Positions 239-63,899 of a stretch of 64,000 nucleotides of DNA are shown here, one piece after another. Positions within the stretch are counted from its first letter, which is position 1. The number at the start of each line of letters is the position of its first letter. The notes below the pieces were generated by a model, which ran no database searches, was not told the origin of the DNA, and saw only the letters and a program-made list of their open reading frames with translations. A program made the position numbers and the translations under genes. This stretch comes from a virus. The stretch covers positions 4,108 to 68,107 of IMG/VR virus record IMGVR_UViG_3300028393_000060. One strand, 5' to 3'.

Positions 239-350
239 TTAAAGACCACGCAATTGAATTTAAAAATGTATATACCATGCTGCTATGGCTGCAGGAAAAC
301 AATATAGAGCAATTACCAGTAACATTAGTACTACACCTAGGAGAAAAGAA

Positions 351-524: not shown

Positions 525-810
525 TGCAAATTAAATACGATGATTTTGGCCAGGTAGTATGGCAAGAACCGGCCAAGATAAAACGAAAGCCGCAAAAAAT
601 ACAATTTATGGAAACATACAAACTACTTGGAAAGGCTTTATTTTAATGAATTTAATAGGTGGATTTTTATTTTTACCCGTTTTGCTAGTAGTAAATGTAG
701 TTAAATGCTTATGGTGGATTGTATCTAATGCTTGGTGGGCTGTGTTAATTTTATGTATATATGCATTATACAAACATTATGCACCAAAATAGGGCATAAA
801 TTTCGCCATG

Positions 811-819
811 TGGTATAAT
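811..819 (+). promoter_or_regulatory. host sigma-70-type extended -10 promoter (TGgTATAAT)
   Basis: consensus TGnTATAAT about 30 nt upstream of the sigma factor start. Confidence 0.6.
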
Positions 820-847
820 AGGGGTTCATGCACAAAAATGAACCCCT

Positions 848-1414
848 ATGAACGAAAACGACATTCTTAGTAACTACCTACAATCCTTGTATGGTATAGA
901 ACCCTTATCTATTGACGAAGAGCATGATCTCGCTAAGCGCATACAAGCAGGCGATGACGATGCCCTAGACAAGTTAATAATCCACAACCTTAGATTTGTA
1001 GTGTATATAGTGCGGCAGATGACCGCCTGGAACCATGGTAAGGTGCCAGTCGAGGACATGATTGGTATGGGTAATGAAGCCCTATTGATGGCGGGCAGAC
1101 GATGGAAACCAAAGAACAGGGCTAAATTTGCGACCTATGCTAAATCCTTTATAGAAAAGGGAGTGCGTAGGGAGCTAGACAATACCGCCAATATCATTCG
1201 ACTACCCGTCAATATTATGGAGCTAGTTAAACGAATGAACTACAACCATAGGGCATTATCCCAAATACTAGGGCGCAACCCTAAACCACAAGAGCTGGCC
1301 AAGATCATGGGTATATCGGTATCTAAGCTAAGCCAAATACAGGGTTATGTATTAAGAGAACCCGTATCAATAGACAATTTAAATCAAGAAAAGTTGGAGG
1401 AGAACGATGATTAA
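848..1414 (+). CDS. sigma-70 family sigma factor, regions 1.2-3 only (no region 4)
   Basis: YLQSL..IEPLSIDEEHDLAKRIQAGD (1.2); LIIHNLRFVVYIV, EDMIGMGNEALL, KFATYAKSFI (2); IIRLPVN..LGRNPKPQELAKIMG..EPVSID (3), then stops. Confidence 0.9.
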   Translation: MNENDILSNYLQSLYGIEPLSIDEEHDLAKRIQAGDDDALDKLIIHNLRFVVYIVRQMTAWNHGKVPVEDMIGMGNEALLMAGRRWKPKNRAKFATYAKSFIEKGVRRELDNTANIIRLPVNIMELVKRMNYNHRALSQILGRNPKPQELAKIMGISVSKLSQIQGYVLREPVSIDNLNQEKLEENDD

Positions 1415-1712
1415 ATTAAATTACGAGCAGCAAAAGGCGTATGACCGGTTTATTAGAGCCAGGAACAGGGTGTATGGTCGAAAAGGTAAATGGGTGCGAG
1501 CAGCAGACTATACCTCCACAGTAGATATAGTTGGTTTAAACCATCCCCTTTTTGAATTGAATGAAGAATACCAAGAGTATAAAGACGCGTTTAAACAATG
1601 GCTGGCAGTTGAACCCACTTTCAGGCACGAAGAAAGGATGCGCGCTAGTCGTGGGGATTACGGCACGATGGATAGTTGGGATGATAAACCAAGCAAAATC
1701 AAGGAGTTATGA
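1407..1712 (+). CDS. hypothetical protein
   Basis: GGAGG SD, translationally coupled ORF. Confidence 0.7.
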   Translation: MIKLNYEQQKAYDRFIRARNRVYGRKGKWVRAADYTSTVDIVGLNHPLFELNEEYQEYKDAFKQWLAVEPTFRHEERMRASRGDYGTMDSWDDKPSKIKEL

Positions 1713-1903
1713 TGAAAGTAGTATTAACTGACATATTCGATAAGGATGGAAACCTATTAAAAATTGATGTCCACGACTTAGAAGGGCAATTCGTCATCCA
1801 AATTGTATGGGATGAGAACGATGAGCAAACCAGTGAAAACCGCAAAGAATTTCGCAAGTGGGCAAATCGCCAGCTAAAACAGCGTGATTACGATCCTCAA
1901 TAA
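1709..1903 (+). CDS. hypothetical protein
   Basis: AGGAG SD, ATGA overlap. Confidence 0.65.
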   Translation: MMKVVLTDIFDKDGNLLKIDVHDLEGQFVIQIVWDENDEQTSENRKEFRKWANRQLKQRDYDPQ

Positions 1904-1950
1904 TCCTCTTAATAGGCTTAATTTTTTTGAAAATCAAAATTTTAGAAATT

Positions 1951-2071
1951 TTTGTACTAGTAGTACTAGTAGTACCCCTTACTTCACTTCTTTTTATATT
2001 TTTTAATTAATAAAAATAAAAATAAAGAAAGAAGTAGATAAGGGGGTACAAGTGGTACTACTGGTACAAAT
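1951..2071. repeat. imperfect inverted repeat with GTACTAGTA units around an AT-rich core; putative replication origin
   Basis: TTTGTACTAGTAGTACTAGTAGTACCCCTT (1951-1980) versus AGGGGGTACAAGTGGTACTACTGGTACAAAT (2041-2071), with an A/T-rich spacer, just upstream of the primase-helicase. Confidence 0.65.
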
Positions 2072-2125
2072 GATAACTTTTGGTTATAAAACGTCAATTC
2101 TATATAACTAAAGTGTATAAAACAC

Positions 2126-2137
2126 TTTGCATTAGTA
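2126..2137 (+). promoter_or_regulatory. phage promoter motif, -10 half only
   Basis: TTTGCATTAGTA without the upstream GGGCG element. Confidence 0.55.
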
Positions 2138-2166
2138 TGTGGTAAGATGTCGGAAAAGGAGAGAAT

Positions 2167-4485
2167 ATGAAACCGACCAGTTTGCCAGTCAATTTCAATG
2201 CAATACCGATGGAACTCAAAAGAATACCACGTTGGGTTCTTTGGCGCTATGTAGAGGTGGGTGAAGAGGGCAATAAGAGATGGTCTAAACTACCAACTCA
2301 GGCTAATGGTTTATCAGCTTCTTCAACCAATTCAGAGACTTGGGCGGACTTTCTCGCTGTCCAACATGCCTACGAAGACAATCCAGACCGTTTTGCCGGC
2401 GTGGGATTCGTCTTTTCCGATGAAGATAGCCTCATTGGTATCGATCTAGACGACTGTTTTGATTCCGCCACACAGAGTTTCACAAATGCTGCAATGCAGC
2501 AATTAGCAGAATCCATTCAAGGTTATATGGAAATCAGTCCTAGTGGCACAGGGGTGAAGATATTTACCCGCGCTCACTTAAATGCAGCCCACGTTGACCA
2601 TTCCATCGGGCTGGAGATTTACCCACAGGGGCGGTACTTTACCGTCACAGGGCAGCATCTCTCCGGTGCACTGCCCACTGAGGAGCAGGATATTTCCCTG
2701 ATTGTGCCACAAAGGGCGGCGCACATTTCAGGTGATGCGTTTGAGGATTACGCCCCACCCGTCCAAGATTATGACTTAGCCAGGGTGGAGACTGAGCTAC
2801 TGTCTAAGCTTGACCCGGACACAGGTTACTCAGACTGGATGGCAGTAGGGTTTGCGTTGCACCATCAGTTCAGAGGCGATCCGGAGGCATGCGATCTGTG
2901 GGATCGGTGGTCTTACAACGACGGTAACTCGACAGGCTACCAGTCTAGCGGTCAGAACTCATGCTATTCCAAGTGGGCGACGTTTAGGAAAGAGTCGGGG
3001 TGCACACTGCGCTCCCTTATCTTTAAGGTAAACCAAAAGGAAAAGCAGCAAGCCTTGGCTAAAGGCGAGATTATTTTAGACCAAGGCTCGATGAACCATG
3101 CTCGCACATTTTTAGACAGTCATTACGCTAGTGAAGAAGGTTACACGCTGGTGCATTACGCAGAAGACTTTTACATTCATGTCAGGACGCACTATGAAGT
3201 TATTGAAGAAGCCACAATACGATCTAAGCTATACACTTTTCTTGATAAATGCAAAAAGACGGGCAGAAAGGGTGCGCTCGAAATGTTTAACCCTTCTCCA
3301 GCATCCGTCTCTGCCGCACTTGACGCTGTCAAATCAATTACGCATTTGCAAAATCATGCAAACACAAAACCACCTATATGGTTGGATCTTTACGCAGCCA
3401 ACAAACCGGATGCGGCTGATCTTATTTCTTTAAAGAACGGTATTTTCCATCTTAAAGATTATGTGATGCTGCCGCACAGCTTAGGGTTCTTCACACAGAA
3501 CTCTTTGCCGTTTGTATATGACCAAGAGGCTAAGTGCCCACAGTGGTTAGCATTTATGCAATCGATTTGGGGTGATGATCAGCAGTCAATCGATACGCTG
3601 CAAGAGATGTTTGGTTACATTTTGTCGGGTGATACTCGCCAGCAAAAGTTCTTTAACATTATTGGACCCCGCCGTAGTGGCAAGGGAACGATTAACAAGA
3701 TACTAGTATCGCTGCTAGGTCAGCACAATACGGTCGCACCACAATTGGAGGAACTCTGTGATACTTTTGGCTTACAGCCTTGGCTGGGTAAACTATTGGC
3801 TTCTTTTACAGACGCACGAGCTCCTGAACGCAATCGGGGCGCTGTTGTGTCTCAGCTTCTTCGTATTGTGGGTGGGGATACCGTCACAGTCAACAGAAAG
3901 AATAAAGAGAGCTGGAATGGTTATCTGCCTACTCGTATCGTTATTTATTCTAATGAAGTTCTTCAATTAACTGAGAACTCTAATGCGTTAACAGGACGCA
4001 TGATTGTGTTAAAAATGACTAAATCATTCTTTGACCATGAAGATACAGAGCTATCATTTAAATTGGAGAAAGAGTTAGCTGGTATTTTTAACTGGGCAAT
4101 GGAAGGATTAAAGCGCAGACTGGCACGTGGCGGTCACTTTGTACAGCCGGAGACCGGTAGAAGTTTGTTGGAGTTGATGGCTGAACTGGGCAACCCAATT
4201 GGCTCATTCGTAGAAGATGCTTTGGAGTTTGATGCGCTGGGCACAGTATCTAAAGACGATGTGTTTACTTGTTACAAACGCTGGGCGCTGGCTAAGTCAT
4301 TACCGCCAGGTACAGAGTTAGCATTTAAACGTCGCTTCTTAGCTGCCACCCAAGAGCATCGAATAGATGTTGATGTTGATAGAACTAACGGCAATAGGAT
4401 ACATATTTATCGTGGCATTAAGTTAAATCCTAAAGCACAGAAGTACGTAGATAGTGTAGAATCATTTAATGAGGAGGTGTTTTAA
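2167..4485 (+). CDS. primase-polymerase (AEP) / PriCT / D5-like SF3 helicase
   Basis: IGIDLDDC and EISPSGTG AEP motifs; YSDWMAVGFALH PriCT-like; Walker A GPRRSGKGT. Confidence 0.9.
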   Translation: MKPTSLPVNFNAIPMELKRIPRWVLWRYVEVGEEGNKRWSKLPTQANGLSASSTNSETWADFLAVQHAYEDNPDRFAGVGFVFSDEDSLIGIDLDDCFDSATQSFTNAAMQQLAESIQGYMEISPSGTGVKIFTRAHLNAAHVDHSIGLEIYPQGRYFTVTGQHLSGALPTEEQDISLIVPQRAAHISGDAFEDYAPPVQDYDLARVETELLSKLDPDTGYSDWMAVGFALHHQFRGDPEACDLWDRWSYNDGNSTGYQSSGQNSCYSKWATFRKESGCTLRSLIFKVNQKEKQQALAKGEIILDQGSMNHARTFLDSHYASEEGYTLVHYAEDFYIHVRTHYEVIEEATIRSKLYTFLDKCKKTGRKGALEMFNPSPASVSAALDAVKSITHLQNHANTKPPIWLDLYAANKPDAADLISLKNGIFHLKDYVMLPHSLGFFTQNSLPFVYDQEAKCPQWLAFMQSIWGDDQQSIDTLQEMFGYILSGDTRQQKFFNIIGPRRSGKGTINKILVSLLGQHNTVAPQLEELCDTFGLQPWLGKLLASFTDARAPERNRGAVVSQLLRIVGGDTVTVNRKNKESWNGYLPTRIVIYSNEVLQLTENSNALTGRMIVLKMTKSFFDHEDTELSFKLEKELAGIFNWAMEGLKRRLARGGHFVQPETGRSLLELMAELGNPIGSFVEDALEFDALGTVSKDDVFTCYKRWALAKSLPPGTELAFKRRFLAATQEHRIDVDVDRTNGNRIHIYRGIKLNPKAQKYVDSVESFNEEVF

Positions 4486-4638
4486 TATGAATGTAATCAC
4501 CGTAAAGCAGTATTTAGAAATTTTTAAGTTCTCAAACGTTGAGAATTTAAAACACATGAAGCGAGTGTTGTTTATGTCACATGGAACCGAAGATTTAAAA
4601 AACCGTTATGAAGCAATAAAAATTGCATTGGGGGAAGA

Positions 4639-4857
4639 ATGAACGATAGAGACTATTTTGCAGCCACCATTATGAGCGGTATCTGCGCTGGTGACTGGAA
4701 GCTAAACATTGAAGAGGGCAGCACTTGGGACGAGATAGCAGCCAAGCGTTGCTACGAGATTGCCGATGCGATGATCAAACACCGTGACATTACCGAAGTC
4801 ACCGAGGCCGACTTTGTACGCAACGCCAAGCTAAGAGACATTGCAGGTGAAGAATGA
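4639..4857 (+). CDS. hypothetical phage protein
   Basis: RDYFAA...CYEIADAMIK.R pattern typical of a common small phage family. Confidence 0.7.
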   Translation: MNDRDYFAATIMSGICAGDWKLNIEEGSTWDEIAAKRCYEIADAMIKHRDITEVTEADFVRNAKLRDIAGEE

Positions 4858-5036
4858 ACGCAAATGAACTAGCTAACTTATTAGAAGTAGATAGTTGGTA
4901 CAAGCTGGTAACTAGGGAAGAAATAGCCACCATGCTACGCCAGCAACAAGCTGAAATAGAGGCGTTGAAACGTCATCGTGATAGATTGGAAACGCTGGCG
5001 GAAAAGATGTTACAAGGAAGCGGAGAAATAGAATGA
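4854..5036 (+). CDS. hypothetical coiled-coil protein
   Basis: ATGA overlap; ATMLRQQQAEIEALK. Confidence 0.6.
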   Translation: MNANELANLLEVDSWYKLVTREEIATMLRQQQAEIEALKRHRDRLETLAEKMLQGSGEIE

Positions 5037-5620
5037 CCACCTTCACCACACAAGACCGGCAAGATGCTCAACGCACCCCGTTGACCGACGAGCAAATACA
5101 CGATATTTGGAAAAGTTTATGGGAAGGCGGCAATATTGGACACATAGCTTACACATACGCCCGCGCCATCGAACGCGCCCACGGAATAGGAGAATAGGAT
5201 GATTTACTTTTTAACTTATTTTTTATTAGACCACTTTGACGCACCATCAATTTACTTTACTTTGTTTTGGTGCATCATTGTCGGTGAAGCGTTGTTTGCA
5301 ATTGCTGCCGGATTTTTACAGGCAATCAACAAATGAGCTTCACCATCTACCAACACGACGGGCTCAAAGTTATCCAGTGGTTCGCCACAGTTGACAGCCT
5401 GATTGCCAGCATGCTGGCCAACCCTAACGACGCATACCACCGCAATGACTGAGATCGCTTTATCATTCTTCATCGGCTTTTTGGTTGGCTTGGTCATGCG
5501 CCCAAAAGATAAAGACATGTTAGACGATGTGCTAGAGCGCAACGAGAAATACCGCAAGTACGAAGAAGAGATTAAATATTACAAAGACTTGTGCAAATGG
5601 CACGTAGAAAGGAAACAAAA

Positions 5621-6649
5621 ATGAAACGAGTATTAGTTACTGGAGGTGCTGGCTTTATTGCCCACCATGTTATTCAAACCATCCTAAACCAAACAGACTG
5701 GAACATTGTTTGTCTTGATCGTTTAGATTTTTCAGGCAACCTAAACCGCCTAGCAGATATGATGGCGGACTTCTCACCTGATACCAAGAAACGAGTAGAG
5801 ATTGTTTACCATGACCTACGTGCTGAACTCAATCCTATGATTATGGAAATGGTTGGCGATGTGCAATACATCCTCCATCTAGCCGCTGGCTCGCATGTTG
5901 ATCGCTCGATTGAATACCCGATGGAGTTTGTGCAAGACAACGTTATTGGCACAGTGCATCTTTTACAATTTGCTAGAACGTTGAAAAACCTTGAGCGCTT
6001 TGTTTACTTCTCAACCGATGAAGTATTTGGGCCAGCCCCCGTTGGTGTCAACTACAAAGAGCGTGACCGTTACAACTCTACTAATCCTTACTCAGCCTCC
6101 AAGGCGGCTGCTGAAGAGCTGTGTGTGGCGTTTGAGAATACTTACAAGCTACCAATTTATATCACGCACACAATGAATGTGTTTGGCGAACGTCAGCATC
6201 CTGAGAAGTACATACCAATGGTAATCAAAAAAGCACGTGATGGTGAAGTTGTGCACATCCATTCAGACAGCACCAAAACCATTCCAGGTTCACGCCACTA
6301 CATCCACGCTAAAGATGTGGCTGATGGCTTGATGTTTATCCTTAGCCTTGATCCTGCTAGAGTTAGTGAAAAAGATTACGGTGGCGCTAAATGTCCTAAG
6401 TTTAATTTGGTAGGACCAGAGGAGATTGATAACTTAGAGCTGGCTCGCTTAATTGCAAAAGCCCAAGACAAAGAACTGGTATACAAACTGATTGATTTTC
6501 ACTCATCTCGTCCAGGACATGACTTGCGTTATGCCTTATCAGGCGAATACCTTAAATCACTTGGATGGGAACCTAAGATCAATTTGACAGATCGCATTAA
6601 AGAAGTGGTGCAGTGGACATTACAAAACGACAGATGGTTAATCAAATGA
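5621..6649 (+). CDS. rfbB: dTDP-glucose 4,6-dehydratase (extended SDR)
   Basis: VTGGAGFI Rossmann motif, HLAAGSHVDRSI, STDEVFG, YSASK, RPGHDLRYA; start moved to MKRVLV. Confidence 0.92.
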   Translation: MKRVLVTGGAGFIAHHVIQTILNQTDWNIVCLDRLDFSGNLNRLADMMADFSPDTKKRVEIVYHDLRAELNPMIMEMVGDVQYILHLAAGSHVDRSIEYPMEFVQDNVIGTVHLLQFARTLKNLERFVYFSTDEVFGPAPVGVNYKERDRYNSTNPYSASKAAAEELCVAFENTYKLPIYITHTMNVFGERQHPEKYIPMVIKKARDGEVVHIHSDSTKTIPGSRHYIHAKDVADGLMFILSLDPARVSEKDYGGAKCPKFNLVGPEEIDNLELARLIAKAQDKELVYKLIDFHSSRPGHDLRYALSGEYLKSLGWEPKINLTDRIKEVVQWTLQNDRWLIK

Positions 6650-6806
6650 CAAAGAAAAAGACTGTAGAGTTTGAAGAAGGCTGGGCGGATGAATTATTGG
6701 CAGATGGTACAATCACACAAGAAGAAGTTGATGCTCTGGAAAGAATTATTACTGAGTTTGTGGAAGACGGCACCATCCTTGAAGATCACAAAGAGACAAA
6801 ACACTA

Positions 6807-7400
6807 ATGGAAAATAAACTACCGTATTACATTGCCGACACCGGACACTTTGGTATCAAGATCAAAGTGTGCTTTTCAGAATCGGCGTTTCATCAGGCTG
6901 TTAAAGATTCTAAAATAACAACCAAGCATCATGCTTTGGACATGGGTATTGCAGAGTCACACTACATCCAACAAGAGGGCACACCGTTTGCCATGTTGGG
7001 CATCGTGTTTAACTACGAAGAGATGGATAAGTTAGATTCATTAGAGCGTATGGGAATTATTTACCATGAAGTATCACATACCACCACTCATGTATTTGAG
7101 TATATCGGTGAAGATGATGCTAAGATTGGTGATGAGTCTCGTTCTTATTTAGGCGAACATATTTTTAAACAAGTGTTTAGCATCTACGCAACGGAGGAAG
7201 ACAAGCGTGAACGTGCTGGAAAAAGAGATAGAAAAACATCTGACGAAGAAAGTGAAGCAGTCATCGGGGCTTTGTTTCAAATGGCTCAGCAGCGTGACGG
7301 GAGTGCCGGATCGGATAGTATTCCTAAACCAAAAGGTACACCTCGTAGAACTAAAGACAGCAACGGGAAAGCTAAGCCCAAGACAGACGCTAGTGTTTGA
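6807..7400 (+). CDS. hypothetical protein with HExxH motif (possible metallopeptidase)
   Basis: YHEVSHTTTH; C-terminal tail overlaps the next gene. Confidence 0.6.
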   Translation: MENKLPYYIADTGHFGIKIKVCFSESAFHQAVKDSKITTKHHALDMGIAESHYIQQEGTPFAMLGIVFNYEEMDKLDSLERMGIIYHEVSHTTTHVFEYIGEDDAKIGDESRSYLGEHIFKQVFSIYATEEDKRERAGKRDRKTSDEESEAVIGALFQMAQQRDGSAGSDSIPKPKGTPRRTKDSNGKAKPKTDASV

Positions 7401-7485
7401 CGAACTGGGCGAAGCTGGTTTTCCTGTACATATATTAAGATCAAAAGAAGACATTGAGGATTTTGTAAATGGCGCTATCAAATAA
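7207..7485 (+). CDS. VRR-NUC nuclease
   Basis: EKEIEK..GVPDRIV..VELKTATGKLSPRQ. Confidence 0.88.
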   Translation: MNVLEKEIEKHLTKKVKQSSGLCFKWLSSVTGVPDRIVFLNQKVHLVELKTATGKLSPRQTLVFDELGEAGFPVHILRSKEDIEDFVNGAIK

Positions 7486-8137
7486 AATTCTTGTTAGGCA
7501 GCAAAATTATAGGAAAACTAAAAAAGGACATTTAGTAAATTTTTTAGGACATGCAAAATCAAGAGCTAAAATTCAAAATCTTCCCTGTGATTTGACATTA
7601 GAATACCTGGAATCGATTGCTAATGATGAATGTCCAGTTTTTAACACGCCATTTGTTTGGGGACAAAGTAATGGCAAACACCCGTACAGGCCTTCTTTAG
7701 ATAGAGTTGTACCAGATTTAGGTTATGTAAAAGGCAACGTTGTTTTTATTTCTTTAAAAGCCAATACAATTAAACAAGACATTACCGAAAAAGAGTTGTA
7801 TGCAGTAGCAGATTGGCTGCATGATAAACGGAAAGAAGTTTTAGAAAATGTTAAACCGAAACCAGTTGCACCCTTACCAGATGAAGATAATTGGGAAGGC
7901 GAAATGCATCCCCAACATCGGACTATTTCTACCACCGGGACTGGGAAAGACAGCAACAACGCTGACCATCATAGCGGAGCAATTTACAGGCAAAACGTTA
8001 ATCATAGCCCCGAAACGAGTAGCGGAGACAGTATGGGATACGGAAATACAGAAGTGGGAACATCTGAAACACTTGAAAGTGTCCAAGATAATTGGGAACT
8101 CCACCCAACGTATGGCTGGATTGAACGCAAAGGCTGA
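7469..8137 (+). CDS. HNH-like (beta-beta-alpha-Me) endonuclease
   Basis: CPVF..PSLDRVVPDLGYVKGNVVFISLKANTIK; last ~95 aa overlap the helicase in another frame. Confidence 0.7.
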   Translation: MALSNKILVRQQNYRKTKKGHLVNFLGHAKSRAKIQNLPCDLTLEYLESIANDECPVFNTPFVWGQSNGKHPYRPSLDRVVPDLGYVKGNVVFISLKANTIKQDITEKELYAVADWLHDKRKEVLENVKPKPVAPLPDEDNWEGEMHPQHRTISTTGTGKDSNNADHHSGAIYRQNVNHSPETSSGDSMGYGNTEVGTSETLESVQDNWELHPTYGWIERKG

Positions 8138-9182
8138 TGTTTATTTGGTTAACTTGGAAAATGTATCGTGGTTATTTGAAGTCCAACCCAAACCAATGTT
8201 TACCAACCTGGTTATAGATGAGTCTAGCCGTTTTAAGGATCCAAGCACCAAACGTTTTAAGGCCCTTAAAAAGCATTTAAAAGGCTTCCAGAGGCGTTTA
8301 ATTCTTACAGGCACACCCACCCCTCAAGGCATGGCCGATCTCTGGTCACAGGTCGGTATATTGGATTTAGGAGAGCGTTTAGAGACAAGCCTTACCCGGT
8401 TCAGGGATAAGTATATGTCTCCGGACCAAATGAACCGACACACAAAGGTTATTTACAGTTGGAAATTAAAAGAAAATGCAGATCAGATTATTAAAGATAA
8501 GATTGAAGATATTTGTTTTAGTCTTAAAGCTGAGGATTATTTACAGCTTCCACCGCTTACAACGCTTTATCACCAGGTTGAGATAGACAAAAATGCAAGG
8601 AGTCAGTATGAGCAACTTAGAAAAGACATGGTCGTTGACATCAAAAAAGAAAAAATCACAGCTCCAACAGCAGCAGCATTGGCGAACAAGCTGCTCCAGT
8701 TCACATCGGGAGCGGTCTATAACGAAGAAGGAGAGTCTCAAGAAATACACCGCGCTAAATTGGAACGGCTTGAGTCGATCATGGAAGAATCTTCAAGTCC
8801 CACGCTTGTCTTCTATCATTTCAAGCATTCACTCCAACGAATACGTCTTCAGTTCCCAGAGGCGGTGGTGCTGGACGATGACAACATTGAGGCGTGGCGT
8901 CGTGGCGAGATTCGTATGCTCCTTGCCCACCCGCAGAGTGGTGGTATCGGGCTTAATCTGCAGTGCAACGTTGGAGAGACAGCACAAACGGTCTGGTTCG
9001 ATTTACCATGGAGCTCAGAGAACTACATCCAGGCAAATGCTCGGATCTACCGCCAAGGGCAAGAAAAACCGGTTATTATACACCATCTAACAGTGACTAA
9101 TAGTATCGACGAGCACGTAGTAAAAGTATTAGAAGGCAAAATTAATTTACAAGAAGCACTTTTAGATTCATTGGTTCTATGA
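7848..9182 (+). CDS. SNF2-family (SF2) helicase
   Basis: LHPYQ, PGLGKT, VIDESS, LTGTP, GLNLQ, QANARIYRQGQ. Confidence 0.92.
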   Translation: MLNRNQLHPYQMKIIGKAKCIPNIGLFLPPGLGKTATTLTIIAEQFTGKTLIIAPKRVAETVWDTEIQKWEHLKHLKVSKIIGNSTQRMAGLNAKADVYLVNLENVSWLFEVQPKPMFTNLVIDESSRFKDPSTKRFKALKKHLKGFQRRLILTGTPTPQGMADLWSQVGILDLGERLETSLTRFRDKYMSPDQMNRHTKVIYSWKLKENADQIIKDKIEDICFSLKAEDYLQLPPLTTLYHQVEIDKNARSQYEQLRKDMVVDIKKEKITAPTAAALANKLLQFTSGAVYNEEGESQEIHRAKLERLESIMEESSSPTLVFYHFKHSLQRIRLQFPEAVVLDDDNIEAWRRGEIRMLLAHPQSGGIGLNLQCNVGETAQTVWFDLPWSSENYIQANARIYRQGQEKPVIIHHLTVTNSIDEHVVKVLEGKINLQEALLDSLVL

Positions 9183-9484
9183 CAACACACAAAGTAAAAG
9201 CAGTAGCCCCGCGTCTTTCAGATGAAGACCTTGACCCAATTGAGCAAGACGAGCAAGAAAGTATTGCGTCTTCGCTAATCAACGAAGGCTGGCTGCCGTG
9301 GGATGCAGAAGACGTTAAAGATATTAAACGTTTGATAGCGGAAAAAATGCCAGCAAAACAGCGCTATGTTTTAGAAGCTTTTTTGCAAGGTTTGAGTTAT
9401 AATGATATAGGTGTGAGCGAAAAACATTGGCGCTACCATTTTAACAATGGGCTTGAATTTATTAAACAGGAACTTAAGGTATGA
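9179..9484 (+). CDS. stand-alone sigma-70 region-4-like HTH protein
   Basis: MPAKQRYVLEAFLQGLSYNDIGVSEKHWRYHFNNGLEFIKQEL resembles the region-4 pattern LPxxQRxV..GLSYxEI..GxS. Confidence 0.6.
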   Translation: MTTHKVKAVAPRLSDEDLDPIEQDEQESIASSLINEGWLPWDAEDVKDIKRLIAEKMPAKQRYVLEAFLQGLSYNDIGVSEKHWRYHFNNGLEFIKQELKV

Positions 9485-9663
9485 CAACATTTATTGTAGA
9501 GCATTTACATAACGGCCACCCAATGTTTGACAGCGTTACCGGTGTAGAAGATATTGATTTAACAATGTTTAAAGACATACAAACATTGTGGGTGTGCGAC
9601 ACGAAAGAAGAAATTGAAGCAGTAGAAAGCGAATTAAGGAAAAAACATGCACGACGTAGTTAA
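9481..9663 (+). CDS. hypothetical protein
   Basis: coupled ORF. Confidence 0.55.
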   Translation: MTTFIVEHLHNGHPMFDSVTGVEDIDLTMFKDIQTLWVCDTKEEIEAVESELRKKHARRS

Positions 9664-10850: not shown

Positions 10851-10881
10851 GGGCGGATTTCTCTTGTTTTTTGCATTAGTA
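10851..10881 (+). promoter_or_regulatory. phage bipartite promoter
   Basis: GGGCGG-ATTTCTCTTGTTT-TTTGCATTAGTA. Confidence 0.8.
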
Positions 10882-10954
10882 GTAATAGGGAGTACAACTC
10901 GTCGTGAGACGCTTGGAAACCGACTTTACACACACTACACACAGGAGAATTAAT

Positions 10955-12419: not shown

Positions 12420-12449
12420 AAAAAAGGGGCTTGACTTAGCCCCTTTTTT
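12420..12449. terminator. intrinsic terminator, potentially bidirectional
   Basis: AAAAAAGGGGCT-TGACTT-AGCCCCTTTTTT. Confidence 0.8.
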
Positions 12450-12458
12450 GCATTAGTA
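12427..12458 (+). promoter_or_regulatory. phage promoter motif overlapping the terminator
   Basis: GGGCTT-N14-TTTGCATTAGTA-TGTAT-AG. Confidence 0.65.
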
Positions 12459-12491
12459 TGTATAGATCTAAAACGTTGAAAAAGGCTAAAA

Positions 12492-25499: not shown

Positions 25500-25522
25500 T
25501 AAATTATCTCGTTATCTACATA

Positions 25523-25553
25523 TACTAATGCAAAAATTAGCATTTTTTCGCCC
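25523..25553 (-). promoter_or_regulatory. phage bipartite promoter
   Basis: GGGCGA-N13-TTTGCATTAGTA-TATGT-AG. Confidence 0.8.
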
Positions 25554-31957: not shown

Positions 31958-31984
31958 GATATTCCTTTAAGGTTGTCCTGTATA

Positions 31985-32015
31985 TACTAATGCAAAAAAA
32001 GGGCGATTTACGCCC
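31985..32015 (-). promoter_or_regulatory. phage bipartite promoter overlapping a terminator-like hairpin
   Basis: GGGCGT-AAATCGCCCTTTT-TTTGCATTAGTA-TATAC-AG; GGGCG/CGCCC stem plus U-tract. Confidence 0.8.
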
Positions 32016-32526
32016 CTAAAAATAGTGCTCTTTCCCGTTTTCTGCGGTTAATCAGCACTTCCGGTTTGTTCCACATTAGGATGGCATCAGCCGCCCCTTT
32101 GAGGTCATTCTCGTTCACCTTACGCAATACGGTAGACTTACGGAAATTAGTTTCGCCAATATTAAAGCACAGGCTGTACAAGGCATCGTATTGGTTCTGG
32201 GTAAGGGGTACCTTCACGTGGTTGTCAACAGCGTCTTGGCACCACTTTAAATCGCTTTGTAGGAGCTCTTCTACCTGCTCGTCTGTTAGGGTGGCAGTCA
32301 GGAGGTGCTTTTCATCTGGTTTAATCAAATGACCCACCCCAATCGTCCATAATCCCTTAGAGTCCCTATACGCCTTATTGCGCAGACCTTCTTCTTTGGT
32401 AATAAACGATAGTGTGGATTTTGCTATTGCCATAACGTTTTCTTCAATTTGGGTGTACTTGTCGGTAAAGTGGATTGCTGCCGCAATGCCCAACAACCAC
32501 ATTGATACTGCTATAAATCTTTTCAT
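32008..32526 (-). CDS. endolysin, GH24 lysozyme with N-terminal hydrophobic (SAR-like) segment
   Basis: EEGLRNKAYRDSKGLWTIGVGH E-D-T triad; QNQYDAL.S..FNIG. Confidence 0.9.
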   Translation of the reverse strand: MKRFIAVSMWLLGIAAAIHFTDKYTQIEENVMAIAKSTLSFITKEEGLRNKAYRDSKGLWTIGVGHLIKPDEKHLLTATLTDEQVEELLQSDLKWCQDAVDNHVKVPLTQNQYDALYSLCFNIGETNFRKSTVLRKVNENDLKGAADAILMWNKPEVLINRRKRERALFLGA

Positions 32527-34574: not shown

Positions 34575-37103
34575 TTACATGTTGTAGGTGTTAAGGGCTA
34601 GGAAGCCGGATGGTGCGGTATAGGCAAATGGTTGCTGACCGAAGTTTGCATTCCATATTGTTGAAGTGCCACTACAATATGCTTGAGCGACAATATCACC
34701 TAATACTAACGGAGCAGATGAGAAGTTTGCTGTTCCTTGACTTGCGTTGTTTTTATAGAATGTAACAGTTTGACCATCACAGCTTACAGCCATACCAAGC
34801 ACATCACCCGTTGTGTATGATGCGCCAGTTACTACAGTAGAACCACCAGCGGTAATATTTCCATTGTTAACATACTCAATAGTCTTGCTTCTTGATGAAT
34901 TCATTAAACCAATGGTCATTGAACCGCCAGAAGTTACTGTAAATTCACTGTAAAACTTACCTGTCAATGGGTAGTACATTGTTGTTGCTGAAACACCACC
35001 GCTACTTGTTGCTGATGTTGTCAAGTTGCCGTTACTAAACGTCGGAACACCATAGTATGTTGTTGCTAATGGATTCCAAGTAGGATAGTTCGCTGCCGTT
35101 GTGCTGGTCAGCGTTGGGCTGTCGGTCATGGCATCATACGTACTACCAGCGGTTAGGCTGATATTATTACATGTCCAGTTGTTCGAGTTGCCTGATGTGT
35201 CATAGCCCAGTGTGGTTGTAGACGTGGTGTTGCTAAACGGCAAGTAGAAGCCGTTTGTGCCATACGTTCCACCGTAGCTAATTGGCTGCCAGACACCGTA
35301 CAAGTTAAAGCTACCGAAGCTGTTAGGCGTTAGAGCTTGGCCGTCGATGAACTGAACGTTGGCCATTTCGCCGTCGAAGTAATTATTTGATGCGCCGTAC
35401 TGCTCTCTACCTAGCCAAATTGGATTTGTAGAAGCAAATTTCCAAGCACCAGTAACAGATGTGCTACTAGAAAACGCGGTTACTTGAACACCGTTTATAT
35501 ATAACTTTGGAACAGAAGATGCTGTAGAAGAAGCAACAATATGATACCAAGCAGCTGGATCACGGAATACAGCAGTTGTATTGATTCCTTGTTCACCACT
35601 AGTAGTTGTGTTATTTATAACACGAATTATATCATTAGAAAAGTCAATAACGCTGTAATTTGCTGTATCAATATAAGATGTAAACAAAGGATATGTACCA
35701 CTACCTAAAGACCCACGCTTAACCCATGCACTCCATGTCCAGGTTGATGTGTTTCCTGCCGTTGAGTTTGTACGATTCAAATAAGCACTAGCTGAACCAC
35801 GCAGTCTTACTGAGTTGCCAACATAGGTCAGTGGCGTTAAGTATCCGCTCGAGTTGAACGTGTGGATGATGTTGCCACCGCTGCTCGTAACCGAACCGCC
35901 CGCCATCTGCTGGACAGTGTCAGCGTAGGATACGATCACGGTACCAGATCCGCCTGCGCCTGATGGGTAACCACCACCGCCACCACCGCCACCAGTGTTT
36001 GCACTTCCTGCTGTTGCTAATGATGAAGTATTTATACCACCATTACCACCACCGCCTGCACCGCCTAAGCCAGCTGTGCCACCAGGGTTTACACCACCAC
36101 CGCCACCGCCAGCGTAGGTTACGCTAGAGCCAGATATTGATGATACTGTGCCAGCACCGCCATTACCAGCAGTTGTCCCACTAAAATTTCCACCAACAGC
36201 ACTAGAGCCACCTCCGCCACCACAAGCGTATAAGTTTGCTCCACCACCACCTGTAGGGCCATCACCACCTTTGTTTCCCTGACCGCTTGTGCCACTTGCA
36301 CCTGTTGATTGCCCTGTGCCATAACCACCGCCACCGCCTGAACCGCCAGAATATGGCCCAGTAGGGCCACCACCAGCACCTCCACCGCCGCCAACTGCGG
36401 CAGTACCATAGGCACTGAACGATGAGTTTGTTCCGTTGTTACCACCAGTGCTTGATGATGTTGAAGCACCACCAGCACCGACAGTTACAGTGTAGGTGGA
36501 TGTCTTATCAACAGATAAGCCAGAGCCAGATAGTAAACCACCTGCTCCACCACCGCCTTGAACAGAACCTCCCGATCCACCACCAGCAACAATCAGGTAG
36601 TTCACCGAGAAGGCGGAAGGCGGTGTGATTGCCTTATAACTCGAGTAGGACACCCAGCCCTGTGTAGCACCACTATAAACAAACGTAATGCCTTCGTTGT
36701 TCTGGTCAAGCTTAACGCTAGTTGTTGCGCCGTTCAGGTTGTTACCGTTGGGATTAACCACCACGTTGTTGGTAGCGAACGTGCCAGCGTAGTCTAACAA
36801 TCCAATCAGCTGACCAGAGGTTGGGCTCGCGGGCAGCGTTACTGTGATGGCTGCCGAGGTTGTGTCAATAGGGTACGCGTTACCAGCCGTAGCGGTGAAG
36901 TTGGCAGACTGGACAGATTGCCAAGTAATGCCACCAGACGAGCTAGTCAGGGGCACCACAGTGCCGCTAGAGTTTTTGTAGTACAAGATGCCGTCGGTGA
37001 TGTTGATCGCCAACTCGCCGTTTGTCAAGTTGCTAGAACTCGGTGTTGCCGCCGCAGTCGTGCTGTAGTACAACGAAATAGGTGTGTAGCCTGATTGTGC
37101 CAT
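34575..37103 (-). CDS. Gly-rich fibre protein with LamG/ConA and SPRY-like domains (paralog 3)
   Basis: MAQSGYTPISLYY..GELAINITDG; VAGGG..GGGG domain; WTWSAWVKR, RDPAAWYHIV; NFGQQPFAY. Confidence 0.8.
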   Translation of the reverse strand: MAQSGYTPISLYYSTTAAATPSSSNLTNGELAINITDGILYYKNSSGTVVPLTSSSGGITWQSVQSANFTATAGNAYPIDTTSAAITVTLPASPTSGQLIGLLDYAGTFATNNVVVNPNGNNLNGATTSVKLDQNNEGITFVYSGATQGWVSYSSYKAITPPSAFSVNYLIVAGGGSGGSVQGGGGAGGLLSGSGLSVDKTSTYTVTVGAGGASTSSSTGGNNGTNSSFSAYGTAAVGGGGGAGGGPTGPYSGGSGGGGGYGTGQSTGASGTSGQGNKGGDGPTGGGGANLYACGGGGGSSAVGGNFSGTTAGNGGAGTVSSISGSSVTYAGGGGGGVNPGGTAGLGGAGGGGNGGINTSSLATAGSANTGGGGGGGGYPSGAGGSGTVIVSYADTVQQMAGGSVTSSGGNIIHTFNSSGYLTPLTYVGNSVRLRGSASAYLNRTNSTAGNTSTWTWSAWVKRGSLGSGTYPLFTSYIDTANYSVIDFSNDIIRVINNTTTSGEQGINTTAVFRDPAAWYHIVASSTASSVPKLYINGVQVTAFSSSTSVTGAWKFASTNPIWLGREQYGASNNYFDGEMANVQFIDGQALTPNSFGSFNLYGVWQPISYGGTYGTNGFYLPFSNTTSTTTLGYDTSGNSNNWTCNNISLTAGSTYDAMTDSPTLTSTTAANYPTWNPLATTYYGVPTFSNGNLTTSATSSGGVSATTMYYPLTGKFYSEFTVTSGGSMTIGLMNSSRSKTIEYVNNGNITAGGSTVVTGASYTTGDVLGMAVSCDGQTVTFYKNNASQGTANFSSAPLVLGDIVAQAYCSGTSTIWNANFGQQPFAYTAPSGFLALNTYNM

Positions 37104-37121
37104 TGAAATATATTCCGTTAG

Positions 37122-38393
37122 TTAAGCAGTATAAGTGCCTGATGCTGTGAATTTGATAATTGTATTGCTGCCTGATGTTGTGATAGTTGGGCTGCCGGTT
37201 GTAGTATTAGAATAATTAGCAGTTGGTACGGATAGAATGACTACGCCTGAACCGCCTGAACCAGGTGAGGCACCTGTACCTCCGCCGCCACCGCCAGAAC
37301 CTGTATTAGCAGAAGCACTACCACCGCTACCACCAGGACCGCCACCATTACCGCCACCCGCTTGACCGCTACCACCAGAACCATCTCCACCACCACCGCC
37401 ACCGCCAGCGTAAGTTACTGACGAGCCGGTAATTGATGAAGCGCCGCCAGCGCCGCCAGCACCACCATTATTTCCACTACCACCTGAGCCTACAGCACCT
37501 TTACCTCCGCCACCACCACCAGATGGGTAAGATGATGGGCCATTATAACCACCAACACCACCATTGTTGCCTTGGCCGGATGTTCCACTACCACCAGCCA
37601 CTGGACCGTTTCCTCCACCACCACCTGATCCTCCAGCGGAGCCAGGGGTTTGCGCATTTCCATAACCTGCACCGCCTTGACCACCACCAACTGTAGTTAT
37701 TGAAGTTAATCCTGAACCAGTTAAAGATGATGCAGAACCAGCAGAATTTCCACCGCCGCCAGCACCTACTGTGGTTGTGTAAGTAACACCTGGAGTAAAT
37801 GTTGCTGTGCCGGTAAGCATACCGCCAGCTCCACCACCACCACCAATTTCTCCACCACCGCCAGCTCCACCAGCTACAACTAAATAGCTTGCTGAGTAAG
37901 TTGTTGCAGCTGGGATACTAGCGTTAAAGCCGTCATAAATTAACCAGCCTTGAGTAGAATCCACATAGAAAATAGCCACTGCTTCACGGTTAGTAGTCAG
38001 TTTAACACTGGATGTTGATCCTAAAAACTTATTGCTGTTAGGATTAATAATTAAGTTGTTTGTAGCAAACGTGCCAGCATAGTCAACGAGCGCAATGAAT
38101 TGGCCTGCAGTTGGAGATGCAGGCAGCGTTACTGTGATGGCTGCGGAAGTCGTGTTGACATAGTAGCCATTACCAGCAGACGCTGTGAAGTTGGCAGACT
38201 GAACTGCCTGCCAAGAAAGCGAGCCACCCGAGCTAGACAGTGGGGTAACTACGTTGCTAGGGTTCTTGTAAAACAAAATACCATCAGCTGTGTTGATTGC
38301 CAACTCGCCAGCAACCATGTTGCCAGCTGTTGGTGATGTACCAGTGCTAGAACTGTAATACAACGAAATGGGTGTGTAACCGCTTTGTGCCAT
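37122..38393 (-). CDS. Gly-rich fibre protein (paralog 2)
   Basis: same N-terminal modules; YLVVAGG..GGSGVVI. Confidence 0.8.
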   Translation of the reverse strand: MAQSGYTPISLYYSSSTGTSPTAGNMVAGELAINTADGILFYKNPSNVVTPLSSSGGSLSWQAVQSANFTASAGNGYYVNTTSAAITVTLPASPTAGQFIALVDYAGTFATNNLIINPNSNKFLGSTSSVKLTTNREAVAIFYVDSTQGWLIYDGFNASIPAATTYSASYLVVAGGAGGGGEIGGGGGAGGMLTGTATFTPGVTYTTTVGAGGGGNSAGSASSLTGSGLTSITTVGGGQGGAGYGNAQTPGSAGGSGGGGGNGPVAGGSGTSGQGNNGGVGGYNGPSSYPSGGGGGGKGAVGSGGSGNNGGAGGAGGASSITGSSVTYAGGGGGGGDGSGGSGQAGGGNGGGPGGSGGSASANTGSGGGGGGTGASPGSGGSGVVILSVPTANYSNTTTGSPTITTSGSNTIIKFTASGTYTA

Positions 38394-38411
38394 ATAAGTA
38401 TATTCCGTTAA

Positions 38412-39707
38412 TTAAGCAGTATAGGAGCCAGATGCTGTGAATTTGATGATCGTGTTCGATCCGCTTGTGGTCACGGTAGGTGATCCAGTTGTAGTGCCTG
38501 AGTAGTTGGCTGTTGGTACAGATATAATGACTACGCCTGATCCGCCAGCGCCAGTGGTAGAATTATCTGCACCACCGCCACCACCACCTGTGTTAGTAGT
38601 TCCATTTGAACCAGAAGAAGCACCTGCTGCACCACCTGCGCCACCACCACCAGAACCTCCACTACCACCAGGACCGCCTCCACCAGTTCTATTTGGATCA
38701 TAGCCACCAGCACCACCACCGCCACCAGCATATGTTACAGATGATCCAGTGATGGAGGATGCAGTTCCTGCGCCACCATTACCACCTGCACCACTTGTCC
38801 CATCAGAACCAACAGCACTAGCACCACCTCCGCCGCCACCACCAAAAGTAGGACCTGCATTACTAGAACCCGTGCCACCATTATTTCCTTGACCAACTGT
38901 GCCAGTGCCACCAGGATCAATGTTACCAGAACCGCCGCCACCTGATCCACCACTACCACCAGAACTAAATCCACCATATCCGCCACCTAATGCGGTTGTT
39001 TGACCAGTTAAAGATGAATTGTTACCGGGGTTTCCTGTAGTTCCTGCGTTTACAGAAGCTCCGCCTCCACCGACAGTTACAGTATAAACCGACCCTGGGG
39101 TTAAAGATGCTGTTCCGGTTAACAAACCGCCAGCGCCACCGCCACCGCCACCACGATTAACCCTAGATCCACCACTAGCACCACCAGCAACAATTAAGTA
39201 ACTTGCTGTGTAGGTTGCGGGTGCTGGGTTGCTGCCCAAGAAACCAGCGTAAGGCAACCAGCCTTTGGTAGAGTCAACATAGACAAACAACAAAGATTCT
39301 CTATTAGTCGTTACAATCACGTTACCAGTAGCACCCAATATCTTGCTACCATTTGGATTAATTGTTAAATTATATGTAGCAAAAGTACCAGCATAATCCA
39401 CAAACCCAACAGCCTGACCAGCGGTTGGGGAAGCTGGTAGAGTAGCCGTAACGCCAGCAGATGTGGTGTTAACTGGATAGCCCTTACCAGCACTTGCTGC
39501 GAAGTTAGAAGCTTGTACAGACTGCCAAGAGACAGCAGCAGAACCAAAAGACAGAGGCACCACTGTGCCGCCTGTGTTTTTGTAGTAGATCACCCCGTCG
39601 GCGGTATTGATCGCAATTTCGCCGTTTACTAAGTTACCAGCAGTAGGTTGAGCCGCTGCAGTGGTACTGTAGTAAAACGAAATCGGTGTGTATCCGGATT
39701 GTGCCAT
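38412..39707 (-). CDS. Gly-rich fibre protein (paralog 1)
   Basis: same architecture; ends TIIKFTASGSYTA. Confidence 0.8.
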   Translation of the reverse strand: MAQSGYTPISFYYSTTAAAQPTAGNLVNGEIAINTADGVIYYKNTGGTVVPLSFGSAAVSWQSVQASNFAASAGKGYPVNTTSAGVTATLPASPTAGQAVGFVDYAGTFATYNLTINPNGSKILGATGNVIVTTNRESLLFVYVDSTKGWLPYAGFLGSNPAPATYTASYLIVAGGASGGSRVNRGGGGGGAGGLLTGTASLTPGSVYTVTVGGGGASVNAGTTGNPGNNSSLTGQTTALGGGYGGFSSGGSGGSGGGGSGNIDPGGTGTVGQGNNGGTGSSNAGPTFGGGGGGGASAVGSDGTSGAGGNGGAGTASSITGSSVTYAGGGGGAGGYDPNRTGGGGPGGSGGSGGGGAGGAAGASSGSNGTTNTGGGGGGADNSTTGAGGSGVVIISVPTANYSGTTTGSPTVTTSGSNTIIKFTASGSYTA

Positions 39708-53476: not shown

Positions 53477-53908
53477 TTAGTTATTGGTATAACCAGAACC
53501 GTATGGAGTAATTGTACCGTCAGCGTTACGTGCAGTGTAAACAACAGAGAACACACCAGCAGAATCATCAGAACCAGCAGCAGCGCGCAATGTTGATGTT
53601 GCAGTGCCAGTGTTAGCTGATAATGTTACGTTAGTTAATACGTTGATGGTTGGGGCGTTAGTTGCTACTGTACCAACAGATACACCATCCAAAGTCACAG
53701 CACGTGATGTGCCAGTGTTGGTTGGGTAAAATTGTACGTAGCTGATGCAAGAACCTGCAGGTAAGTATACAACTGCATCGGTTGCAGTAGTAACAGTAAC
53801 TTGTTGGCTTAGTACGGCTGCGCCAGTATTATCTGGGCTTGTTGTACCATCGTTGCTAGTTGTTTGGCGTGTGTTAACACGTAAAGGGGCTGTAAATGTG
53901 CTTGACAT
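53477..53908 (-). CDS. structural (head decoration-like) protein
   Basis: start reassigned to ATG 53908 (MSSTFTAPLRV); LPAGS.I motif. Confidence 0.7.
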   Translation of the reverse strand: MSSTFTAPLRVNTRQTTSNDGTTSPDNTGAAVLSQQVTVTTATDAVVYLPAGSCISYVQFYPTNTGTSRAVTLDGVSVGTVATNAPTINVLTNVTLSANTGTATSTLRAAAGSDDSAGVFSVVYTARNADGTITPYGSGYTNN

Positions 53909-53999
53909 TGTTGTATTCCATTTCTCAGTGGGTATCCCAAACTGTCCCTGAGTTGTGATGCCGGGAAGGGTCGGCAATCAGGATGGGATTAATCTTCCT
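53909..53999 (-). ncRNA. candidate structured 5' leader RNA
   Basis: AUCCCA/UGGGAU and UGCCG/CGGCA stems; loop CUUCC complementary to 5' GGAAG. Confidence 0.45.
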
Positions 54000-54004
54000 A
54001 TACC

Positions 54005-54035
54005 TACTAATGCAAACTTTTCAAAAAATCCGCCC
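54005..54035 (-). promoter_or_regulatory. phage bipartite promoter
   Basis: GGGCGG-N13-TTTGCATTAGTA-GGTAT-AG. Confidence 0.82.
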
Positions 54036-57952: not shown

Positions 57953-57957
57953 AAACT

Positions 57958-57988
57958 TACTAATGCAAATTTATCAGAAAATCCGCCC
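57958..57988 (-). promoter_or_regulatory. phage bipartite promoter
   Basis: GGGCGG-N13-TTTGCATTAGTA-AGTTT-ATG. Confidence 0.82.
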
Positions 57989-61096: not shown

Positions 61097-61132
61097 AGAG
61101 TGTTCAAAAATGTGTTATTAGATTCCTAATTA

Positions 61133-61163
61133 TACTAATGCAAAGAAACGACTGTTTCCGCCC
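61133..61163 (-). promoter_or_regulatory. phage bipartite promoter
   Basis: GGGCGG-N13-TTTGCATTAGTA-TAATT-AG. Confidence 0.82.
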
Positions 61164-63863: not shown

Positions 63864-63868
63864 ATATC

Positions 63869-63899
63869 CACTAATGCAAATTATAGCCGTTTGCCGCCG
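63869..63899 (-). promoter_or_regulatory. phage bipartite promoter
   Basis: CGGCGG-N13-TTTGCATTAGTG-GATAT-ATG. Confidence 0.75.

Follow-up and report, generated by a model that had tools for sequence, protein, structure and literature searches.

A phage sigma factor gene that ends before region 4 and a distant gene for a region-4-like protein: a candidate two-gene sigma factor with two promoter classes

Background

The DNA considered here (termed the window) consists of 64,000 nucleotides (nt), bases 4108-68107 of the 68,107-base IMG/VR virus record IMGVR_UViG_3300028393_000060, which is complete by CheckV rating. On the + strand near its left end lie two genes, 8 kilobases (kb) apart, that are the subject of this analysis: gene A, which encodes a sigma factor without a region 4, and gene B, which encodes a small protein whose predicted fold resembles that missing region. 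A third open reading frame (ORF), termed ORF C, adjoins gene A. The three are placed as follows:

848..1414, + strand: gene A, the sigma gene (Pfam, PHROG and profile matches)
1407..1712, + strand: ORF C, 101 residues, overlapping the stop of gene A (ATGA) and found directly after gene A in every relative examined
9179..9484, + strand: gene B, a frame of 101 residues

An earlier interpretation of the window from its letters alone (termed the sequence-only reading) proposed that the two proteins may assemble on host RNA polymerase as a split sigma factor, with arrival of the region-4 protein acting as a middle-to-late switch. Here the domain content of gene A, the predicted fold of gene B, the conservation of both genes and the classes and positions of the promoters are computed, and the two-gene interpretation is weighed against several alternatives.

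Results

Gene A ends at the start of region 3.2

As judged from sequence comparisons, gene A is a genuine RpoD/SigA-like sigma factor with regions 1.2, 2 and 3.0-3.1, and with neither the region 3.2 linker nor region 4. Searched against Pfam as a single sequence, this open frame of 188 residues matches Sigma70_r1_2 (E = 2.3e-6; 27.9 bits, cut-off 22) and Sigma70_r3 (E = 2e-6; 28.3 bits, cut-off 25.3), falls under the cut-off for Sigma70_r2 (E = 1.1e-3; 19.1 bits, cut-off 24) and has no region-4 match; it also matches PHROG 351, 'RNA polymerase sigma factor', at 1.5e-28. A profile constructed from 18 distinct homologues on viral contigs finds 72 distinct solved sigma sequences at E <= 1e-3, always over regions 1.2-3.1. 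The best of these is a SigA/RpoD chain (8x6f_E; E = 6.6e-30), for which profile positions 4-177 correspond to residues 96-265 of 368 and the last aligned residues are ...EPVSLE; gene A therefore stops at the start of region 3.2. The sequence-only reading was thus right about which sigma regions are present and that region 4 is absent, and wrong in placing the stop right after EPVSID, which is followed by 12 further, mostly acidic residues.

This ending is shared by all 18 of the distinct homologues, which come from independent contigs at 53-93% identity, are 188-193 residues long and terminate in the same ...EP(V/I)S(I/L)..acidic tail. A word-index search finds 530 relatives of gene A at E <= 1e-5; the 120 of them listed are 167-221 residues long, and PF04545 or PF08281 occurs in none of these 120. 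Because the homologues and the listed relatives all stop short, the truncation is the fixed, normal state of a large family and not damage. The converse explanation--that gene A is decayed or mis-assembled and the split is an artefact--was considered, since truncated genes are common in metagenome assemblies. No support for it was found: the same stop recurs across the homologues and the listed relatives, and the next frame after it is ORF C, which is conserved and does not encode a shifted region 4. Its probability is negligible.

ORF C was itself considered as the missing region 4 and was rejected. It has no match in Pfam, PHROG or the atlas; its AlphaFold2 (AF2) model, with a predicted local distance difference test (pLDDT) score of 74, shows no helix-turn-helix (HTH) fold; and its best structural match, at Z 4.8, stands among unrelated hits. 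ORF C may be another polymerase-directed factor.

Gene B and its predicted region-4-like domain

According to its modelled structure, gene B is predicted to consist of an acidic tail followed by a sigma-region-4-like HTH domain (residues ~40-101). In the AF2 model residues 43-99 have pLDDT > 90, with helices at 43-56, 59-69 and 81-99, and the N-terminal ~40 residues are acidic and predicted to be disordered; the four-helix fold of regions 4.1-4.2, with its C-terminal recognition helix, is present in this prediction. When the model is compared with 48,161 representative solved chains, every one of the top 25 matches is to sigma region 4, either as separate domains or as whole sigmas aligned over region 4 (Z 8.4-6.3; root-mean-square deviation 1.4-3.6 A; 52-64 residues aligned, at model residues ~39-101). 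They include sigma-H, CnrH, SigL, SigD4, BldN, SigR4 and sigma-E region 4 on -35 DNA; LuxR/FixJ-type domains first appear at Z 6.0 and then lower. Foldseek likewise ranks sigma-4 domains first, with probability up to 0.97 but with E 0.2-1. ORF C, modelled in the same way as a control, has no structural match over Z 4.8, and therefore the result for gene B is not generic for small helical phage proteins. The description of 9179..9484 as an isolated, region-4-like HTH with an acidic N-terminus is in this way upheld by the model, and the shortened turn noted at the same time reappears as a 4-residue gap, between YNDI and GVSEK, relative to both GerE and a full-length phage sigma, the residues missing from gene B falling between the first HTH helix and the recognition helix.

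Relatives of gene B are encoded at 50 viral loci, and the family profile matches 388 database clusters at E <= 1e-3. The 120 of these 388 that are listed are 92-113 residues long and mostly labelled 'hypothetical', three of the 120 carrying the JGI name 'sigma24 family protein'; a tblastn search of isolated phages with gene B gave no match at E <= 1. Ten of 28 homologues match Sigma70_r4_2 at E <= 1, the best at 2.1e-4. Their alignment contains two blocks, both of which are kept in far more distant homologues: an N-terminal acidic motif with invariant P11 R12 L13 S14 D15 E16, D19, E22 and D24 (PRLSDED.DP.E.D), and a C-terminal block with invariant E81 K82 W84 R85 H87 F88.

These two blocks bear on a very improbable alternative, namely that gene B mainly serves host takeover: its acidic tail would insert into the RNA exit channel, or attach to the flap, and dislodge region 4 of the host sigma (phiEco32 gp79 and T4 AsiA each do so in their own way), and DNA reading would be secondary or absent. 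The most conserved part of gene B is indeed the N-terminal motif (P11-E16, D19, E22, D24), which distant homologues keep, and not the HTH. There is moreover a precedent in phiEco32, where, according to the portion of the published account available here, the N-terminal segment of a small phage protein invades the RNA channel, displaces sigma-4 and stabilises the phage's own sigma (PMC12276001). That same portion, however, gives gp79 a different fold (PMC12276001). The recognition-helix residues E81, K82, W84, R85, H87 and F88 are also invariant, which points to a conserved surface for DNA or protein, and the promoter class described next needs a reader, for which six-frame searches and gene annotation turned up no other candidate.

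Two classes of promoter

The core motif TTGCATTAGT(A) is strongly over-represented in the window, 17-40 nt ahead of start codons, and TTGCATTAGTATA, at up to 2 mismatches, occurs in 10 copies where 2.5 +/- 1.6 are expected, a count that none of 100 shuffles reaches. Of nine exact TTGCATTAGT copies, six have GGGCG and one has CGGCG, each starting exactly 20 nt upstream; the core copies without a box are those at 2127 and 12448. Since the word GGGCGG alone is not enriched (19 occurrences versus 15.6 expected), the signal is its fixed position. Core copies without the GGGCG box are termed here class I, and those with a box starting exactly 20 nt upstream class II:

2127..2138, + strand: class I site TTGCATTAGTAT, no GGGCG box, 29 nt before the primase-helicase start (2167)
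10851..10882, + strand: class II site, the first copy downstream of gene B (GGGCGG at 10851-10856, 14 nt, TTGCATTAGTAG at 10871-10882)
12448..12459, + strand: class I site TTGCATTAGTAT, right after a terminator-like hairpin and ahead of replication genes
25522..25553, - strand: class II site, GGGCGA at -20, core 25533, ahead of a structural-gene block
31984..32015, - strand: class II site, GGGCGT at -20 inside a hairpin, core 31995, repeat family D20, ahead of a structural-gene block
54004..54035, - strand: class II site, GGGCGG at -20, core 54015, downstream of the head genes and ahead of 53977..53477
57957..57988, - strand: class II site, GGGCGG at -20, core 57968
61132..61163, - strand: class II site, GGGCGG at -20, core 61143, ahead of the portal gene
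63868..63899, - strand: class II-like site, CGGCGG at -20, core 63879, at the head of the terminase/late block

The six class II sites of the - strand precede structural, packaging and lysis blocks. The class I site at 12448 precedes the exonuclease, single-stranded DNA (ssDNA)-binding protein, ribonucleotide reductase and DNA polymerase genes, and between the class I site at 2127 and gene B, which lies downstream on the same strand, there is no further copy of the motif.

Both promoter features described in the sequence-only reading--a -35-like GGGCGG at a fixed position and its absence from the copy at 2126 (here 2127)--are thus found, the former as (G/C)GGCG at exactly -20 in seven of nine exact copies; the box is kept in relatives, and gene B may be its reader. 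The promoter logic, which had been guessed from that one copy, recurs there as well. Among distinct contexts in which a copy occurs within 3 kb after gene A, the first on the + strand is box-less in 13 of 13 (a further 15 contexts have no copy at up to 1 mismatch). Within 3 kb after gene B the box accompanies the first copy in 30 of 31, all but a one-mismatch hit; 18 contexts have no copy there, and in some such lineages the core is a variant. Gene B has a core copy of its own within 120 nt upstream in 9 of 46 distinct contexts, box-less in every one of the nine (own TTGCATTAGTAT copies of this kind are at L027:2633-2660, L031:320-347, L039:2102-2129, L044:265-292, L049:2552-2579, L013:7217 and L016:7594, where the L numbers denote individual relatives). 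In seven of the nine the gene B ATG follows TAGTAT by only 5 nt, which implies a leaderless or near-leaderless mRNA in several lineages. In the window, gene B has no such site and overlaps the stop of the SNF2 helicase gene.

TAGTAT occurs in 3 of 26 sites with the box versus 30 of 61 box-less sites, a list that includes chance intragenic hits. Such a distribution would follow from TAGTAN being the -10 element and from the box making up for a weaker -10. The possibility that TTGCAT is instead a host-type -35 element, with a -10 further downstream, was rejected because the start codons follow the motif by only 17-35 nt.

Two side observations concern the motif itself. At 12423..12447 (+ strand) and 31996..32016 (- strand), a terminator-like GC hairpin with a run of T abuts the core, forming back-to-back terminator-promoter units, an arrangement also seen in relatives L022, L031, L050, L057 and L062. 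In a 67.8 kb lineage (L079-L081) the core is the variant TTGCATAAGT, the GGGCGG box is the same and genes A and B are correspondingly diverged.

The hairpins give some room to the explanation that genes A and B are functionally unrelated, the box being read by another phage or host protein (e.g., ORF C or the product of an unannotated gene) or being a terminator or UP-like element, while gene B regulates something else. Two box-like sequences (31995, 12448) lie inside terminator-like hairpins, many small phage ORFs lack annotation, and ORF C is conserved and coupled to gene A. Most boxes, however, lie outside hairpins at exact spacing; the ORF C model has no DNA-binding fold; gene B is the sole region-4- or HTH-like candidate found; and its place between box-less and boxed sites is conserved. 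On balance this explanation is improbable.

Genes A and B as possible complementary parts

Sigma region 3.2 is an acidic, flexible linker. Gene B matches the missing part of the sigma factor both in composition, with an acidic disordered start followed by a helical domain, and in size: the SigA chain 8x6f_E has 103 residues past its aligned part, and gene B has 101. Six-frame Pfam searches of the 68,107-base genome found no other region 4; these searches missed gene B as well, and their negative is therefore only moderate evidence.

The two genes also occur together, as the sequence-only reading required of related phages. Thirteen of 16 contigs with gene A also hold gene B, 6-12 kb downstream (one is cut by the contig end), and the other three end before the place where gene B is expected; no contig spanning both positions is without either gene. 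Both are present in the more divergent lineage L079-L081. Scans with distant homologues of gene B return the same broad family, together with short contigs that end before the expected position of gene A.

Gene map, relatives and other features

The window is divided into two blocks, a + strand block that extends from the left end to ~18.6 kb and a region, from 18.6 kb to the right end, that is on the - strand throughout and contains the terminase, portal, head, tail-fibre, holin and endolysin genes. Many small ORFs of the phage are without annotation. Besides the genes listed above, the + strand block includes VRR-NUC nuclease and HNH endonuclease genes and the following:

2167 (start), + strand: primase-helicase (gene map)
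5591..6649, + strand: NAD-dependent nucleotide-sugar epimerase/dehydratase (Pfam GDP_Man_Dehyd, 1e-48)
7469..8137, + strand: HNH/endonuclease VII-like ORF (PHROG 3322, 9e-29)
7848, + strand: SNF2 helicase (gene map)

After gene B come small genes of no assigned function, then the exonuclease (12492) and, downstream of it, genes for a gp2.5-like ssDNA-binding protein, ribonucleotide reductase and DNA polymerase. The epimerase/dehydratase gene, which is complete and stands among the early genes, may serve host-surface or DNA-sugar modification. Two further PHROG matches of the ORF at 7469..8137 are labelled 'Srd anti-sigma factor' (6e-9) and 'decoy of host sigma70' (0.0055). At its 3' end ~290 nt are shared with the SNF2 helicase as annotated, so that one of the two starts is probably wrong.

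Two regions of the - strand are repetitive. At 42399..51425, Gly-X-Ser triplets (...SGYSGFSGYSGQDG...) make up nearly all of a 3008-residue frame, which has a 9-nt period and, at a higher order, repeats of ~400 nt; its product is probably a very long fibre protein. At 34575..39707, three tandem paralogous tail-fibre/spike-like genes (842, 423 and 431 residues) contain Gly-rich repeats, and the DNA of this stretch has repeat units of ~1.3 kb (families D12 and D17).

With 530 relatives of gene A and 388 of gene B, at the thresholds given above, the family is a large one in freshwater-type metagenomes. Isolated phages have no near match to positions 1-10000 of the window, and the nearest gene A-like genes in named phages are full-length sigmas that are host-like or host-derived.

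Discussion

The best reading of these observations, held with slightly better than even confidence, is that genes A and B form a two-gene sigma factor in which late arrival of the region-4 piece enables -35-dependent promoters. Those computational predictions of the split-sigma idea that could be tested all came out in its favour, so that the interpretation offered by the sequence-only reading is partly supported.

Mechanistically, gene A would contribute regions 1.2-3.1 and, with them, binding to core RNA polymerase, melting at -10 and recognition of the conserved TTGCATTAGTA(T) element. Gene B would supply the acidic linker-like tail and the region-4-like HTH, and would occupy the position of sigma region 4 on RNA polymerase (i.e., at the beta-flap), from which it could read the GGGCG box 20 nt upstream. 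Gene A lies in the leftmost block and is preceded by no phage motif, so that host RNA polymerase presumably transcribes it before the other genes; upstream of it, consensus promoters of sigma-70 type number 5, where 9.5 +/- 3.5 are expected by chance. With gene A alone, polymerase would work at the class I sites, which lack the box, almost always have TAGTAT (the best -10-like hexamer) and would need no -35 contact, leading to expression of replication proteins and of gene B. As gene B accumulated, the A+B holoenzyme would begin to use the class II sites, which stand ahead of a single + strand block and, on the - strand, of every structural, packaging and lysis block. The binding of gene B to RNA polymerase, its reading of the box and the timing would all be parts of this scheme, in which we infer a middle-to-late switch from the positions of genes and promoters.

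Such a division of labour resembles what is known of sigma70 fragments without region 4.2, which were made in the laboratory and which initiate at strong or extended -10 promoters and not at -35-dependent ones. Their activity matches the logic of classes I and II; the difference is that those are engineered fragments, whereas the arrangement here is natural and conserved.

A more far-reaching proposal, offered tentatively and with somewhat less than even confidence, is that the physical division of a primary-type sigma factor serves as a developmental clock, i.e., that a single split protein gives rise to a feed-forward middle-to-late switch. A sigma(1.2-3.1) fragment would by itself act at consensus -10 promoters without a box, those of the replication genes and of the gene encoding the domain that it lacks (in some lineages expressed from an essentially leaderless transcript), and the two-piece sigma would be complete only once the region-4 protein, acting in trans, had accumulated, at which point the -35-dependent late promoters would fire.

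Several observations weigh against the two-gene sigma factor. The similarity of gene B to region 4 at the level of sequence is weak, below family cut-offs: its sole Pfam match is to Sigma70_r4_2 (E = 0.038; 14.1 bits, cut-off 25.7; residues 55-77). The searches with sigma-70 family models proposed by the sequence-only reading place regions 1.2 and 3 of gene A over their cut-offs, and region 2 of gene A and the region-4 match of gene B under theirs. Profiles of gene B homologues, run against the sequences of solved structures, found no sigma; the best matches of a broader profile, which are non-significant, are to GerE (E = 0.21) and FixJ (E = 0.33); and an hhalign comparison of gene B residues 41-101 with region 4 of a full-length phage sigma, although in register, has E = 0.038 and a probability of 1.3%. 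Structurally, a Z of about 8 is middling for small helical domains, and the first HTH helix of gene B is 4 residues shorter and is not predicted to be helical, so that its reading of DNA may differ from that of a canonical region 4. The co-occurrence of genes A and B lies within one syntenic phage family only, in which most genes co-occur. No fused A-B protein was found among 33 representative gene B-profile matches in 1.84 billion proteins, nor (as weak evidence) in a search for longer proteins with gene B, so that there is no Rosetta-stone link; the 33 matches are all short except for one protein of 229 residues, which was rejected as a fused form because it matches only the N-terminal half of gene B and is not a sigma. 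As to the promoters, with TAGTAT as the -10 element the GGGCGG hexamer is 20 nt upstream, a greater distance than the usual ~17 unless it is the 3' part of GGGCGGAWW that is contacted. Classes I and II are moreover interleaved on the + strand, where the class I site at 12448 is downstream of gene B, and hence the order is not a simple linear cascade.

The promoter classes fit equally well, with the same genomic picture, an explanation that we regard as unlikely but as the main rival: that gene B is an independent activator with a sigma4/LuxR-GerE fold, which binds the GGGCG box itself and aids RNA polymerase by protein contact. The polymerase would then carry gene A or a host sigma, gene B would not be in the place of region 4 on the beta-flap, and gene A would be a permanently region-4-less sigma like T4 gp55. 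Small stand-alone activators of GerE type that work with alternative sigmas are well established, and the GerE and FixJ matches just given (E 0.21-0.33) point the same way. LuxR-type domains superpose on the gene B model (Z 6.0-4.5), and among its protein-language-model neighbours are HTH_50, GerE and Sigma70_r4 clusters alike, at scores of 0.90-0.92, which are leads only. However, sigma region 4 accounts for every one of the 25 best structural matches, which extend over the additional N-terminal helix; the box is a lone site, not a palindrome, and its distance is invariant, in contrast to the repeats to which LuxR-type proteins typically bind as dimers; and in its length and its acidic, linker-like tail gene B corresponds to the part missing from gene A.

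If genes A and B do form a sigma factor, it would differ from each of the systems with which it may be compared. T4 gp55 keeps little beyond region 2, T4 late promoters are without a -35 element, and gp33, a co-activator that binds the beta-flap, does not read DNA, activation coming from the sliding clamp; here gene A keeps regions 1.2-3.1, the late sites have a fixed upstream box and the predicted fold of gene B is of a DNA-reading type. In common, to the extent that the available excerpts describe T4, would be a phage sigma without region 4 and a small phage protein on the region-4 side, both of which T4 needs for late genes. SigO-RsoA and Sig7-Sig8 resemble extracytoplasmic function sigmas (group 4) and are encoded by adjacent genes, the small subunit having a region-2-like function. 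By contrast, the sigma described here is group-1/2-like and is cut between regions 3.1 and 3.2, its small subunit is region-4-like, the genes are 8 kb apart and the promoters are of different classes. The likeness to these two systems would be that -10 and -35 functions are divided between two polypeptides, both on RNA polymerase, as the accessible part of a recent preprint describes (bioRxiv 10.64898/2026.10.01.756105). The two-subunit sigmas that this part of the preprint names are SPO1 gp33/gp34, T4 gp55/gp33, B. subtilis SigO-RsoA and Tn916 Sig7-Sig8 (bioRxiv 10.64898/2026.10.01.756105).

In the Bacillus phage SPO1, gp33 and gp34 similarly direct late transcription by host core polymerase, again as given in that part of the preprint (bioRxiv 10.64898/2026.10.01.756105); no sequence relation to them was detected, the search of the phage collection with gene B yielding nothing at E <= 1. 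In phiEco32 a phage sigma, gp36, is helped by a small protein, gp79, in a switch from host to phage promoters, with the N-terminal segment of gp79 acting at or close to the RNA channel and the C-terminal domain of the sigma, according to the available portion of that study (PMC12276001). The same portion has gp36 keeping its own -35-reading C-terminal domain and gp79 binding the clamp without reading DNA (PMC12276001), whereas here the C-terminal domain itself appears as a separate protein.

Conclusions

In the literature, covered mainly through abstracts, no described case was found that joins a primary-type sigma naturally cut between regions 3.1 and 3.2, a distant gene for the -35 reader and the placing of that gene under a different promoter class. 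If the two-gene interpretation is true, then timing by subunit completion would have a simple natural example in this phage family. The family would likewise offer a test bed for how RNA polymerase is loaded in trans with region 4 and the 3.2 linker, and a source of orthogonal parts for synthetic circuits.

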